DNA of 46,717 nucleotides, from positions 1 through 46,717 of the forward strand of contig JBQLZK010000038.1 of the NCBI GenBank assembly GCA_052168235.1. Direction: 5' to 3'. Origin of the DNA: Thainema sp. GTDB taxonomy: Bacteria; Cyanobacteriota; Cyanobacteriia; Phormidesmidales; Phormidesmidaceae. Made by a program: the position numbers. How positions within the stretch are numbered: position 1 is the first letter of the stretch; each line of letters begins with the position of its first letter. Positions 18,001-21,000 of the stretch are shown here, in pieces.

Positions 18001-21000
18001 TACAGCATCGTGTAATTTCAGTCATTTACTGACTCACAGATTGCACCTAATCAATGAGAAATCAAGTACACCGAAAGGTTATTTTGTTACCATCATACGG
18101 CAGCGAAATAACCTTTTGGGGTTCTAGTACAAGCTATGAGTTGACTTAATGAAAAATGCGATCGCACTTCTCCTAATAGGATTCGTAGGTGCGATCGCAC
18201 ATGGTCAACACTAAAGCCAGAGCGCCACTCTACAAATTGAGCGGTTGAACATTCAGATCCTTCAGCGTGATTGAAAAATGGCGCTGTTCACCTGTTGCAA
18301 TGAAGGAAACAATCACCTCACAGGCCACCGCAACCGTTAGCATCACCAAATTGCGAGCTAGCGGATAATCACAAATATCATCATTCACGTCCGAAGGTAC
18401 TCGGTAATCATCATTCCAAACCACTTCCGCGTAATCAGCCGCAAGTCCCGCGTGGAGACAAGAAATTCCAGCTTGATCGACGTAATTTTTCACTGCTCGA
18501 CGAGAAATGCTGTTATCAAAAACATCAATGATCAACTTGCTCCCATTAAGGAGTTGGGCAGCATTATCTACAGTTAATTTTTTAGTTTCAATTTCGACCT
18601 TTGTGCCAATTGCTCGATACAGATTATTTGCCAAAATTTTGGCCTTAAATGCACCGACATCGGAACGATAATACGGCTGAGTTGAAAGATTCCGTTCTTC
18701 AATGCGATCGCAGTCAATTACCTTGAGTTTGCCGAACCCAGCCCGAGCCAAATTCTCAGCTAGATTGGCACCCAAAGCCCCCACGCCACAAAGAGTTACG
18801 GGATAGTCCTTCAGCTTTGCCATCACCGCATCGGTTCGGTAAAGTTGTTCATGGAGAAAGATAGTCATAGTCCTTCCATCACACCCACTAAGGATTGCAG
18901 GTCAAAATCGCGATCGCGCCCGCTCAAGCAAATACCAGAGCTGACTACCGTTAAGTCATTTTTTGTGATCGCACTGGTATGGCGAGTGCCGTCAGCCATT
19001 GTCCAATCAACTGTCCAGTACTCACCCCGATCCCGGAACTGGTGCAGTTCGCCGCCGCCAAGTTTGAGCGCCTGCCGCAGTCGGCGCTCGTCGCGCTGCG
19101 GTTGGGCAAATCCGGCTGTGCGCTGCGTGACTAACTCATATAGCGATCGCATTTCGGGCGTCATGTCCTTAAACTGCAAGTCTTCAACCGGAGTGAGCTG
19201 CTTGAGATTAGCTTGCAGGGTTTCTGCGATCTCAGGATCAGCCCGCCGATCAACCTCTTCAAACCAGCAGGACTGACCGTTCCAGCGAGCTGTGATTTGC
19301 TCAAATGCTACGCCTTCGGTTATCAGATGCACCAGCACGGGCTTAACAACTTTGAACCGCTGTCGCATATCCGCTTCATTGACTGGATAAGCTAGCCAGG
19401 TTCGATTCTGTAAGCGATAGGCTAACCGCAAGCGAATCGATTGAAACTGCTGCAAGTATGCAGCAATCTGGAATAGATCAGCTTCTTCTACTAGCGTTAC
19501 GGTCTGCGCATCCACAGGCTGAAAAATCCCCCATCCCTCAAACTGCTCGGGTTTCGGAATAAAGGTGTAAACCATGCCTGCAACCCGCGTGCGGACTCGC
19601 CCAGCCTTGACGCAGGGGGCGAGGAATTGAGTTGTTTGCAGGTGTGCTTCAGCACTGGCAATCTGATTCAAAAGCTGGCGGATGTCAGTCATAGCGCAAA
19701 ATTTCGCGAACTTCCATTAGAATTTGTCCCAGTTTGTTCTTGCCGCTGCCGTCTTTGCCACAGCCCCAGTAGTAGTCAATAGGGGAATTTTCGACGATTA
19801 GTTCATTCCCAGTACTGAGTAAAATTTCTTGAATATTGGCATGGGTGCTAAACTTTTGCAGCACAGCTTTATGCATCACTTCATCCTTGACTTGTTCCCA
19901 GTCGGAACGAAGTGGCAATGTGCGATCGCGCCCCATGTTGGCAGCCTGTTTTGGCGTTTTGGTTTGCCGTACCTTTTCTAGATAAGAAGTGCCGACAAAC
20001 TTTTGTGCCTGAAAGTAATGTTCACTGGTTGCCCAATACAGCTCATCGAGCATGAAGCCATGCGCTGAGAAATTGGAGAAGCAACCGTAGGGTTTCTCTC
20101 GTTCAACGTAGAAATAAATGGTCATGGTTGCTCCCTATCCTTATCTCTAGCTAAAACGGAATCTTATTAAAACCCGACAATTGATTGTTTGAGAAGCTTG
20201 GCTTAGCCAAGCTTCTCAAACAATCAATTGGGTTCTTATACATGGACTCAAATCATACCTGCGTGCAAGTTTTTAGAGCATTGCGCGTTCTCAGTTACTT
20301 GGGGGACTCCGCTGGTGAGTTCTTACACACTCTTTCAAGGATGGCTACTTCTAAGCCCACCTCCCAGGTTCTTCGCACTCCCCGTTTACAAGCGCCCACT
20401 GCATGGCAGCGTCACGTTTCCTCTCGTACTCGTATGTAGGCTCCACAGTTTAGGGCACGCAGGATATATACTACAAATACTACAAGCAAAATAATCGCTT
20501 TCCGGATGATTGTTCAAGGGGATTTTGGTAAATGTTCAGTCCCAAATAGGACATGCGCCCTAATAAAGATTACTGGAGTCATTCCCGCCCCAAAGAGACT
20601 GTATAGCAGAAATACACGCGTACTAATCCTGTCTAGAGAGAGACGGCAACGCCCAATCAGATGCGTTACAAGGGAAATGGAAAGATGGGAGATTAAACAT
20701 GCCTGTAAAAGAGCTACGTAAGAGCACCATGATGGCACATTTGCTAGATGCGTTGGATGCCGACCAGGATATTCAACATTATGGAAGACTTGTTTTTGCG
20801 ATGGTCGCGCACCATTTTATGGACGAGGAGGAACTAGTAAGCTATCTACAAAAAGGTGGCCATATCAGTGAAGCAGAGGCTCGATCGCTTTATCAGCAGG
20901 TGCAAGCAAAAGACTACAACCCACCCAAACGCGATCGCATTTTGGAGTGGCAGCAGCAGCAAGAGTTTACCATCTGTCCCAATGCCGATGATCCAGATGC

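Follow-up and report, generated by a model that had tools for sequence, protein, structure and literature searches.

A proposed ubiquitin-like activation and conjugation cassette linked to a divergent Ro60 protein, with g03841 as its candidate E2-like component

Introduction

To our knowledge, bacterial conjugation of ubiquitin-like proteins (Ubls) has so far been tied to the cyclases of CBASS and to the tagging of phage particles, and we know of no settled biochemical output for bacterial Ro60 and its vWA domain. BilABCD and other prokaryotic operons with Ubl, E2, JAB and E1 genes were reportedly described by Iyer, Burroughs and Aravind in 2006 and in the work on Bil and Bub, and a 2020 review by Sim et al. 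is said to cover bacterial Ro60 (Rsr) with its Y RNA. A full-text search found no paper that joins TROVE/Ro60 with a Ubl, a JAB, ThiF or the term ubiquitin-like as a system; Burroughs and Aravind 2016 and Sim et al. 2020 may already describe the neighborhood. In the accessible part of one preprint, Ro60 and three E1-like genes occur in the same Asgard virus and are left unconnected, and the accessible part of a jumbo-phage survey places ROT/TROVE in a few phages with no mention of Ubl, JAB, E1-like or ThiF proteins.

Here we analyze the genes g03841 and g03840 of the cyanobacterium Thainema sp. and their surroundings in a stretch of 46,717 nucleotides (the window; contig JBQLZK010000038.1). 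We propose, with a probability of roughly 0.55, that both are parts of a cassette for Ubl activation and conjugation that is firmly wired to a Ro60 ribonucleoprotein, and in which g03841 serves as the E2 equivalent. The cassette is taken for a ubiquitin-like apparatus because a small Gly-ended protein and a Prok-JAB peptidase belong to it.

The closest described systems resemble this cassette in part. CBASS type II, with Cap2 and Cap3 (an E2-E1 fusion and a JAB), likewise combines a minimal bacterial E1, a Cys-bearing E2-type domain and a JAB in a conflict system. It differs in that the E1 and the E2-like protein are here separate genes with no fused form found, a dedicated Gly-ended candidate Ubl takes the place of the CD-NTase tail, the partner is Ro60 rather than a nucleotide cyclase, and g03841 shows no profile similarity to one Cap2 E2 domain. 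Bil-type operons hold the same four roles (a small Ubl ending in Gly, an E1, a JAB and a Cys protein), and they reportedly occur on mobile elements and in the setting of phage-host conflict; unlike in those operons, the Ubl and the Cys protein of the cassette match no Pfam Ubl or Prok-E2 family, the Cys protein has a tandem OB module, Ro60 and tRNA-like RNAs are coupled to the cassette, and the cyanobacterial form has lost the JAB. The pairs ThiS-ThiF, MoaD-MoeB and TtuB-TtuC also join a small Gly-ended carrier to a dimeric E1 of ~200-250 aa, and ThiF is the best NCBIfam type for g03840; yet g03840 falls far short of the cut-offs of all ThiF and MoeB models, and the cassette has no conserved sulfur donor or thiolase, its candidate Ubl ends in Y-G or F-G, and it includes both a JAB and a Cys protein.

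Results

g03841 founds a large unnamed family

The g03841 gene (275 aa, 'OB275') occupies 18865-19692 on the minus strand and the E1 gene g03840 18230-18868 on the same strand, as an earlier note on this DNA had placed them. We characterized g03841 by an AF2 model, fold searches, conservation and a co-fold with an E1 dimer and the Ubl. It is a genuine single-copy gene whose ORF shares 4 nt (ATGA) with that of g03840 and 8 nt with that of a NADAR-domain protein (19685-20125, minus). The same note had reported no Pfam or NCBIfam match for g03841, and this is borne out: zero Pfam families were found at E<=0.01 and also at E<=10, none in NCBIfam, PADLOC or PHROGs, and nothing among PDB sequences. 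Its placement in a large family is supported as well, since phmmer against 1.84 billion representatives recovered 735 at E<=1e-3 and 171 at E<=1e-30, where the earlier search, made with a profile and not with phmmer, had given 820 and 244 at the same thresholds. g03841 founds a large unnamed family.

Four residues had been called invariant. Among 62 sequences this holds for P26 (62/62), whereas C255, L256 and D264 are each found in 61/62; the single relative without Cys255 has an aberrant C-terminus, and Cys255 is invariant in the alignments A2, A3 and A4. When longer fused forms were sought, they yielded only a fragment at 25% coverage within an NRPS and no fusion to an E1 or JAB. A tblastn search of plasmids with the homologue L114, which is of the JAB-type, matched just two cyanobacterial plasmids.

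g03841 combines a tandem OB module with a conserved Cys domain

The high AF2 confidence noted earlier was reproduced with 62 sequences (pLDDT 94.8, pTM 0.75). DSSP on the model assigns an N-terminal helix (residues 4-18), OB1 (23-70), OB2 (84-147), helices at 153-164, 179-193 and 197-211, a four-strand meander (215-251), the Cys255 loop and a final helix (265-274). Residues 23-147 have the five-strand barrel of the OB fold, of the S1/IF1/S17 type, and S17, IF1 and S1 are among the OB rows of the fold searches. Foldseek-PDB again gave no row at E<=1e-3, with S1, RNase II and Unr at the top, and a BFVD search gave generic OB rows only. Of the two to three OB barrels claimed before, the model supports just two; the third domain is predicted to be a helix with a four-strand meander, which is not clearly an OB fold. 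For the tandem OB module, Foldseek ranks the N-domains of the proteasomal ATPases Mpa and PAN, which consist of a coiled coil and a tandem OB, at a probability of 0.93-0.96, about level with RNA-binding OB proteins.

The C-terminal Cys domain (residues 172-275; 18868-19179, minus), which we propose as an E2-like catalytic domain, carries the motif sAGICLSGxDxxFDLxSLVgV. In an alignment of 35 sequences, the invariant residues in domain numbering are G82, C84, L85, D89, F92, D93, L94, S96, L97 and V98. Modeled alone, the domain reaches a pLDDT of 84.4. In the full-length AF2 model Cys255 lies four residues past strand 248-251, the last of the meander, and ahead of the following helix. The predicted order of elements (helix, four-strand meander, Cys loop, helix) matches that of E2/UBC and RWD folds, with an invariant Cys in the loop after strand 4 as in UBC domains. 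The sequence G-I-C-L-S resembles G-F-I-C of one Cap2 E2 domain and also the E2 active-site motif. An HPN-type motif is absent ahead of Cys255, where only S-S-G or S-A-G stands between strand 4 and I-C; HPN is missing from many prokaryotic E2-like families too.

Profile and fold comparisons of the Cys domain were largely empty. Pfam at E<=10 gave no family and none that recurred among the 35 members, a PDB profile search was empty, hhalign against one Cap2 E2 domain gave a probability of 0.5%, fold searches returned no clear fold, and a features search of the ESM Atlas with residues 172-275 gave no usable match. Attempts to build Prok-E2 profiles from genomes found PF14461 in just 2 of 201 genomes. 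We read g03841 as a putative E2-like Cys carrier made of a tandem OB module and a Cys domain, which sequence profiles do not place within UBC.

A minimal E1 is predicted to bind the OB module

The g03840 protein (212 aa) is a minimal E1/ThiF-type adenylating enzyme without a C-terminal Ubl-binding or zinc domain. Pfam ThiF (PF00899) matches at E 1.4e-25 with 90.3 bits (cut-off 28.1), PADLOC E1-E2 models match as well, and the best PDB sequence matches are 9egb/9egc, TcdA and MccB, with PaaA also present. All 22 NCBIfam models score under their cut-offs, ThiF being the best type (for example, 91.9 against 159), and on these scores g03840 would belong to no named equivalog (ThiF, MoeB, TcdA, PRTRC ThiF or Cap2). 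Invariant in 28 sequences are H6, E7, R11, G28, G30, G33, D52, D54, R55, N60, T63, Q64, K75, D115, D118, N119, R123, C166, Y168 and R172. These include the nucleotide and Mg motifs of an E1, with its Gly-rich loop, Mg-binding Asp and N-terminal Arg (G28, G30, G33, D115, D118, N119 and R11). MoeB/ThiF-type enzymes conserve an Arg in N-L-x-R-Q; the corresponding stretch of g03840 is N-L-S-T-Q, with the invariant Thr63 at the position of that Arg.

Co-folding of two E1 copies with the candidate Ubl described below and g03841 scored 0.68, and the best of three controls 0.26. Among 157 solved complexes 116 attained that mark, as did 2 of 215 mismatched pairs, and these counts apply only roughly to a multi-chain job with its own alignments. 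At least 70% of contacts agree between runs and the pLDDT of the partner is at least 76. In the predicted interface, residues 72-74, 77, 126, 146 and 149-154 of g03841 face residues 67-90 of the E1 on both copies. The contacts run through the OB module, and Cys255 is not confidently placed near the E1. The OB folds of g03841 are not good evidence for the RNA-binding role in surveillance that had been assigned to it, because the Mpa/PAN N-domains score about as well as RNA-binding proteins and because the co-fold puts the tandem OB on the E1 dimer.

The contacts in the OB module alone, together with the invariant Cys166 that the E1 itself owns and the lack of a clear E2 fold in the searches, would also suit an arrangement in which Ubl, E1 and JAB form conjugates by direct transfer from the E1, with g03841 as a substrate or an E3-like adaptor that brings Ro60 or RNA to it. 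We regard this as unlikely. The role of a mere adaptor would hardly account for a Cys that is almost invariant and lies in the family's most conserved motif, and the cassette offers no other candidate for a Cys carrier.

Two further targets of the E1 were considered and dropped. Between 4 and ~50 residues follow the Cys motif in relatives of g03841, and a tail of such variable length makes its own C-terminus a poor substrate for adenylation. Adenylation of the Ro60 C-terminus, in the style of Cap2 and its cyclase, was set aside after the Gly-ended small protein turned up; that C-terminus has a conserved ...PLPxRK followed by 0-11 variable residues.

A Gly-ended candidate Ubl and a JAB peptidase accompany the E1

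The candidate Ubl, a 66-aa protein encoded at 25619-25819 on the minus strand, ends in ...IRPEAVYG directly before the stop codon and was found by ORF analysis, clustering and tblastn. Clustering recovered it as a family of Gly-ended proteins of 66-75 aa, and by tblastn a member is present in 44 cyanobacterial and 19 metagenome loci, out of 80 each. Gly directly precedes the stop codon in 61 of these 63 (44/44 cyanobacterial, 17/19 metagenome), and the last two residues are Y-G or F-G, not G-G. Residues H3, R5, G8, S10, R60, P61, A63 and G66 do not vary across 20 sequences. There is no Pfam match at E<=10 and no PDB profile match. The protein has the character of a small Gly-ended protein encoded with an E1, and its distribution follows that of g03841: in one sample of 301 genomes of the phylum, 32 have g03841, 30 have the candidate Ubl and 29 have both, leaving three with g03841 alone (one of them a fragment) and one with the candidate Ubl alone. 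In several of the genomes with both, the two genes are on separate contigs.

Outside the cyanobacteria, a Prok-JAB peptidase gene lies between g03841 and the E1. All six tested ORFs score above the cut-off of 25 for Pfam Prok-JAB (PF14464), at 26.9-37.0 bits, and the metal motif ...HTHP...S..D... (H-x-H...S-x-x-D) is visible in the neighboring JAB ORFs. By tblastn the JAB occurs in 29 of 80 metagenome loci and in 0 of 80 cyanobacterial loci; no JAB gene was found in the window, nor with one query in the genome. All nine candidate Ubls with residues past the Gly come from JAB-bearing loci (seven viral loci, L143 and L149), whereas none of the 44 cyanobacterial ones, whose loci are without JAB, is extended. 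The candidate Ubl and the JAB are parts of the cassette that were absent from the earlier reading.

The cassette includes a Ro60-like protein and recurs in contigs labeled viral and in a phage

A divergent Ro60-like TROVE and vWA protein of 477 aa (22681-24114, minus) was recognized by weak matches and synteny. It matches only vWA models in Pfam, weakly and below their cut-offs; in the PDB it matches a 'TROVE domain-containing protein' (9l5y, E 0.018, residues 35-394) and in PHROGs phrog_850 'RNA-binding protein' (4.5e-07), and its relatives give weak matches to PF25045 vWA_Ro60. A tRNA-like gene, a candidate partner of the Y-RNA type, was called by ARAGORN just upstream (24485-24578, minus). 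A TROVE-vWA protein adjoining a gene for a tRNA-like non-coding RNA recalls bacterial Ro60 (Rsr) and its Y RNA; the Ro60 of the cassette differs in being very divergent and in keeping company with Ubl, E1 and JAB genes, not with PNPase or RtcB-type repair genes.

The gene order reported before is confirmed: the E1 is next after g03841 on the same strand in 74 of the 77 cyanobacterial loci whose flanks were long enough. The link to Ro60, which lies upstream of g03841 in 55 of 66 cyanobacterial loci, extends far beyond the cyanobacteria. In 23 contigs labeled viral in IMG/VR we found Ro60 in 22, Ubl in 20, E1 in 20 and JAB in 18, with the cassette on one strand and in the same order of Ubl, Ro60, g03841, JAB and E1. 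No other same-strand ORF cluster is present in at least five of the 23 viral loci, and the GenBank phage LR756511.1 (595 kb) has all five genes. The metagenome counts for E1 (37/50) and Ro60 (29/38) are underestimates, as a greedy ORF filter lost genes overlapped by longer spurious frames. The full cassette of Ubl, Ro60-vWA, g03841, JAB and E1 is present in huge-phage-like contigs and planctomycete-like bacteria. It is not the three-part module once proposed, since the Gly-ended Ubl and the Prok-JAB are also in it.

The matches of the E1 to MccB and PaaA could point to peptide modification, with the E1 altering the C-terminus of the small protein to give a secreted or toxic product. This is extremely improbable given that the viral loci hold no conserved transporter, immunity or tailoring genes, that the small protein has 66-75 aa with a conserved globular pattern, and that its constant partner is Ro60.

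RNA elements and accessory genes surround the cyanobacterial form

In the cyanobacterial form, including that of the window, the JAB is missing and p290, an RNA that mimics the ribosomal GTPase center and sometimes NADAR are added. The conserved protein p290 (24609-25481, minus), encoded between Ubl and Ro60, is a mostly cyanobacterial accessory (tblastn, 36 of 80 cyanobacterial loci) with no match in Pfam, NCBIfam, PADLOC or PHROGs. The NADAR-domain protein (Pfam NADAR, 1.7e-43) is an accessory translationally coupled to g03841 here; of 66 cyanobacterial loci, only 8 have it upstream of that gene. A structured RNA (20180-20480, minus), recognized by an Rfam LSU match, its sequence and its fold z-score of -5.67, immediately precedes the operon. 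It comprises a mimic of helices 43/44 of 23S rRNA (20312-20367; Rfam LSU 53.1 bits, model positions 1093-1148), a motif resembling the sarcin-ricin loop and a 25-bp terminal hairpin. Elsewhere, tRNA or tRNA-like genes stand next to Ubl or Ro60 in 9 of 13 scanned metagenome loci and within 8 kb on either side of the cassette in 18 of 19 scanned viral loci.

Such RNA elements bear on the reading of the earlier note, in which a triple-OB, RNA-binding g03841 forms a three-part surveillance system with Ro60, and the E1 acts on RNA (like TcdA) or on g03841 without a Ubl. The rRNA mimic, which 45 of 66 cyanobacterial loci have directly upstream of g03841 at a median gap of 121 nt, speaks for it, as do the S17, IF1 and S1 matches of the OB folds and TcdA among the matches of the E1; at the Rfam gathering score, however, none of 13 non-cyanobacterial loci yielded the mimic. 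That reading also leaves out both the Gly-ended protein, which accompanies g03841 in 29 of the 33 genomes having either, and the JAB, and the variable tails make the C-terminus of g03841 a poor substrate. We now consider it very unlikely.

The same RNA-rich setting of Ro60, tRNA-like genes and tRNA arrays would fit a sulfur carrier. The small protein, like ThiS, MoaD or TtuB, would then be adenylated at its Gly and converted to a thiocarboxylate, and g03841 would bind RNA by its OB folds while its Cys relayed a persulfide for the thiolation of a tRNA or tRNA-like RNA that Ro60 holds. In favor are the E1, a minimal enzyme of the MoeB/ThiF/TcdA type with ThiF best in NCBIfam and TcdA among the PDB matches, and the OB folds of g03841. 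JAB peptidases are known from sulfur-carrier operons, and the one here would act as in the CysO/Mec+ and QbsE/QbsD pathways. This pathway is nevertheless improbable, as the five genes conserved in viral loci (n=23) include no rhodanese, cysteine desulfurase or PP-loop thiolase, the small protein does not end in G-G, and g03841 matches no sulfurtransferase family.

Discussion

We favor a conjugation pathway in which the E1 dimer would adenylate Gly66 of the 66-aa Ubl, as its family motifs and the Gly end of the Ubl suggest. The acyl group may then move to Cys166 of the E1 or to Cys255 of g03841, both near-invariant. As the E2 equivalent, g03841 is predicted to dock its tandem OB module on helix 67-90 of both E1 protomers, and its C-terminal domain would carry the Ubl. 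The Ubl could finally pass to Ro60-vWA itself or to a target presented by it, the most conjectural of these steps. Where present, the JAB may trim residues past the Gly and would probably reverse conjugation, because extended Ubls occur only with a JAB.

The setting is probably a conflict over tRNA and the translation apparatus, since cassettes lie within the tRNA arrays of huge phages and, in the window, beside tRNA-like genes and an rRNA decoy. The position inside such arrays suggests that, during infection, the cassette takes part in the contest over the translation apparatus. A bolder extension, which we offer as a long shot, is that Ro60 acts as the RNA-sensing substrate receptor of a Ubl ligase. 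Its ring would capture a damaged or foreign tRNA or rRNA fragment, and the OB-bearing E2-like protein would tag the ribonucleoprotein, possibly the RNA itself through a ribose hydroxyl. If true, this would be prokaryotic and phage Ubl tagging directed by, or onto, RNA.

If Ro60 and tRNA-like RNAs are joined in one conserved cassette with a Gly-ended Ubl, an E1, a JAB and a new Cys protein, RNA quality control would be tied to protein-style tagging. The cassette would give roles to two new families, the Ubl and the OB-plus-Cys protein, and four or five small soluble proteins would allow a direct test of what the Ro60 vWA domain does.

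The operon and the g03841 family

Three translationally coupled ORFs occupy the minus strand: a NADAR ORF (19685-20125) overlaps g03841 (18865-19692, 275 aa) by 8 nt, and g03841 in turn overlaps by 4 nt the third, g03840 (18230-18868, 212 aa), whose Pfam match (PF00899, E 1.4e-25) identifies it as a ThiF/E1-type enzyme; g03840 does not reach the cut-off set for any named NCBIfam equivalog. g03841 is single-copy within its own genome, and searches of Pfam, NCBIfam, PADLOC, PHROGs and PDB sequences found no match for it. A single-sequence search returned 735 cluster representatives with E<=1e-3, of which 171 reach E<=1e-30, reproducing the family size given in an earlier note on this DNA to within the difference between profile and single-sequence searches; at 90% identity the relatives form 1392 clusters. 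The best matches listed with organism names are all cyanobacterial, their products being 'hypothetical protein' or 'Uncharacterized protein'. No fused forms were found in the collection searched. A 1240-aa NRPS from Symploca sp. (P0396) contains a stretch 71% identical to about one quarter of g03841; the likely cause is an artefact of gene calling or assembly, or a remnant of a pseudogene.

In the AF2 model of g03841 (62 sequences; pLDDT 94.8, pTM 0.75), DSSP assigns a helix at residues 4-18, a first barrel at 23-70, a second barrel at 84-147, helices at 153-164, 179-193 and 197-211, a four-strand antiparallel meander at 215-251 and a last helix at 265-274, with Cys255 on the loop between the meander and the last helix. 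As in the earlier note, Foldseek against the PDB gave nothing at E<=1e-3; that note, which spoke of a triple-OB protein, did not raise the point that no OB fold is evident in the C-terminal part of the model. This part holds the most conserved stretch, the motif sAGICLSGxDxxFDLxSLVgV, in which Cys255 is kept in 61 of 62 sequences. Beyond this motif the tails are anywhere between about 4 and 50 residues long, so g03841 itself lacks an E1-substrate-like end.

Neighbourhood in cyanobacteria

We sampled 80 cyanobacterial g03841 loci. In 74 of the 77 with sufficient flank a full-length E1 gene lies downstream on the same strand (median gap 23.5 nt), and Ro60, a divergent TROVE-vWA-like protein (22681-24114, minus, in the window), lies upstream in 55/66; NADAR does so in just 8/66. 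Directly upstream of g03841, often about 90 nt ahead of its start codon, 45/66 loci carry an rRNA-mimic RNA. In the window, 56 nt of this structured RNA (20180-20480, minus; fold z-score -5.67) match helices 43/44 of 23S rRNA, the L11/GTPase-associated centre (Rfam LSU, 53.1 bits); the RNA also contains the sarcin-ricin-loop-like AGUACGAGAGGAA, together with a perfect 25-bp hairpin followed at 5 nt by a short U run. It was not found at the Rfam gathering score in 13 non-cyanobacterial loci.

Several other genes surround the operon. The interval between Ro60 and the RNA, 20699-22627, holds two small ORFs, of 127 aa (plus) and 111 aa (minus), as well as the gene of a ParA-like ATPase (21620-22627, plus). 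Across the 80 cyanobacterial loci only the 111-aa ORF had a match, and only in L009, so all three look like an insertion. On the operon's downstream side, the opposite strand encodes a 677-aa protein (15668-17701, plus) in which three long internal repeats occur together with calcium-binding nonapeptide repeats of the RTX type (Pfam HemolysinCabind, 7e-33).

A candidate ubiquitin-like protein and a JAB peptidase

Scanning metagenome contigs with an alignment of distant g03841 members returned 80 loci (31-43% identity to its first sequence), in which E1 is a neighbour in 37/50 and Ro60 in 29/38, both undercounts. Many have a gene of 131-182 aa between g03841 and E1 with the motif ...HTHP...S..D...; all six tested scored above the Prok-JAB (PF14464) cut-off, and tblastn located this JAB peptidase in 29/80 metagenome and 0/80 cyanobacterial loci. 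Among the relatives of one JAB-type g03841, all that carry an organism name are from Planctomycetes. In the JAB-type subfamily (e.g. loci L085, L093, L099 and L114) the Cys motif of g03841 is followed by a longer conserved tail, ...IREG..G..VRVG..N.GM.E..YWRVHP..., or by an acidic D/Y-rich tail, extras that the cyanobacterial proteins do not have.

Clustering all same-strand ORFs of the metagenome loci yielded a family of 66-75 aa proteins in 18 loci that end in ...RPEAV(F/Y)G, our candidate ubiquitin-like protein (Ubl). The earlier note missed its gene in the window (25619-25819, minus). By tblastn the family occurs in 44/80 cyanobacterial and 19/80 metagenome loci, always on the same strand as g03841, with the stop codon directly after the Gly in 61 of these 63 homologues; 20 aligned sequences share eight invariant residues, G66 among them, and no match to the family turned up in Pfam or among PDB sequences. 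The conserved ORF p290 (24609-25481, minus) has no family match, probably starts at an internal Met near residue 48 and occupies the Ubl-Ro60 interval in 36 of the 80 cyanobacterial and a few metagenome loci (L100, L152, L157).

Across 301 genomes of the phylum, g03841 is present in 32 and Ubl in 30; 29 have both, three have g03841 alone (one a fragment) and one has Ubl alone, in a sample whose related genomes are not independent and whose 32 g03841 genomes span 17 genera. In several genomes the two genes are on separate contigs, indicating that their link is more than adjacency. One or two residues follow the Gly in seven viral and two metagenome Ubls, all nine in JAB-bearing loci, and no extension occurs in the 44 cyanobacterial Ubls, whose loci are without JAB. 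The correlation speaks for the identification of Ubl and of JAB alike. The earlier note had proposed a three-part RNA-surveillance module of Ro60, triple-OB protein and E1, a reading that leaves Ubl and JAB unaccounted for.

The cassette on viral contigs

A scan of contigs labelled as viral in IMG/VR gave 23 g03841 loci on contigs of 23-467 kb, in which custom HMMs found Ro60 in 22, Ubl in 20, E1 in 20 and JAB in 18. The order is Ubl, Ro60, g03841, JAB, E1, all on one strand, and these are the only same-strand ORF clusters common to at least five of the 23 loci. All five genes are also present in LR756511.1, a 595-kb GenBank 'uncultured phage'. In this combined set (L164-L187) most contigs are longer than 100 kb and ten measure 200-470 kb, sizes consistent with huge phages.

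tRNA genes or arrays lie in the ±8 kb flanks of 18 of the 19 viral-contig loci scanned, the arrays holding up to 17 genes, and two loci (L172 and L179) have a tmRNA gene nearby. In the window, four tRNA genes (26012-26474, minus), one with an amber-reading CUA anticodon that ARAGORN calls tRNA-Pyl, are just upstream of the Ubl gene, and a 94-nt tRNA-like gene (24485-24578, minus) is just upstream of Ro60; tRNA-like genes stand beside Ubl or Ro60 in other phyla as well. The C-terminus of Ro60 (window 22681-22760 and homologues in L093-L157) is strikingly conserved, 13 residues leading into +L-LL.EI...PLP.RK before 0-11 variable residues, and may serve as a peptide on which another member of the cassette docks.

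g03841 as a proposed E2-like Cys carrier

The cassette comprises Ubl, E1 and JAB without a recognised E2. In UBC and RWD folds a helix and four-strand meander are followed by a loop and a helix; the near-invariant Cys of g03841 is modeled on a loop directly after a helix and four-strand meander, again followed by a helix. The local G-I-C-L-S resembles both the E2 active-site motif and G-F-I-C of one Cap2 E2 domain. Because g03841 is the only other constant cassette protein besides Ro60, has this Cys and shows an E2-like order of elements, we claim that it works like an E2. Sequence profiles gave no E2/UBC link, and Foldseek with a model of the Cys domain alone (pLDDT 84.4) returned no match; since these direct tests are weak, the claim is confined to E2-like working and leaves UBC-family membership outside.

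Co-folding two E1 copies with Ubl and g03841, using custom alignments, scored 0.68 versus 0.26 for the best of three controls, a mark reached by 116/157 solved complexes and 2/215 mismatched pairs, counts that are only roughly valid for such a job. Runs share at least 70% of contacts, with partner pLDDT of at least 76. The confident interface sets g03841 residues 72-74, 77, 126, 146 and 149-154, on the inter-OB helix and the D-R-R-A-D-P loop after OB2, against E1 residues 67-90 of both protomers; D148 is kept in 50/62 and P153 in 43/62 g03841 sequences, and on E1 (28 sequences) K75 is invariant and R85 nearly so. No solved E1 complex is known to include an OB dock of this kind, so it seems unlikely that the score merely reflects a memorised structure. 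The model supports docking of g03841 on the E1 dimer. The Cys domain is placed without confidence, and g03841 could instead be an adaptor or substrate rather than a Cys carrier.

Other E1 features bear on the chemistry. Invariant in the 28 sequences are the Gly-rich loop, the Mg-binding D115-x-F-D-N, an N-terminal H-E...R, K75 and Cys166 within C-D-Y-P-L-A-R-N; Thr63 takes the position of the Arg in the MoeB/ThiF motif N-L-x-R-Q. Unlike MoeB-type E1s, which have a C-terminal Ubl-binding or zinc domain, g03840 has neither, and the OB dock and the unusual Y-G/F-G Ubl tail may compensate. The most serious rival is a sulfur-carrier pathway for RNA thiolation, because the E1 is minimal and ThiF-like, the cassette has an RNA context and JAB use is known in such pathways, but the conserved genes include neither a sulfur donor nor a thiolase, and the Ubl tail is not G-G.

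Proposed mechanism and relationships

To the observed gene set, gene order, co-occurrence, conserved residues and extension-JAB link we add a conjugation mechanism in which E1 would adenylate Ubl Gly66, Cys-linked intermediates would form on E1 Cys166 and on Cys255 of g03841 docked, as modeled, on the E1 dimer, and Ubl would pass to Ro60-vWA or to something that it presents; trimming and reversal would fall to JAB. The window's cyanobacterial cassette is a form without JAB whose Ubl needs no trimming, and it has acquired p290, the helix 43/44 and sarcin-ricin-like RNA and, here, NADAR.

In the library searched we found no paper that connects a set of Ubl, E1 and JAB to Ro60 or TROVE; the likeliest place for an earlier description, Burroughs and Aravind 2016, lies outside that library. 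We rate the cassette as belonging among bacterial and phage ubiquitin-like conjugation systems, with two component families and the partner Ro60 being new, and its role may lie in conflicts over tRNA and the ribosome.
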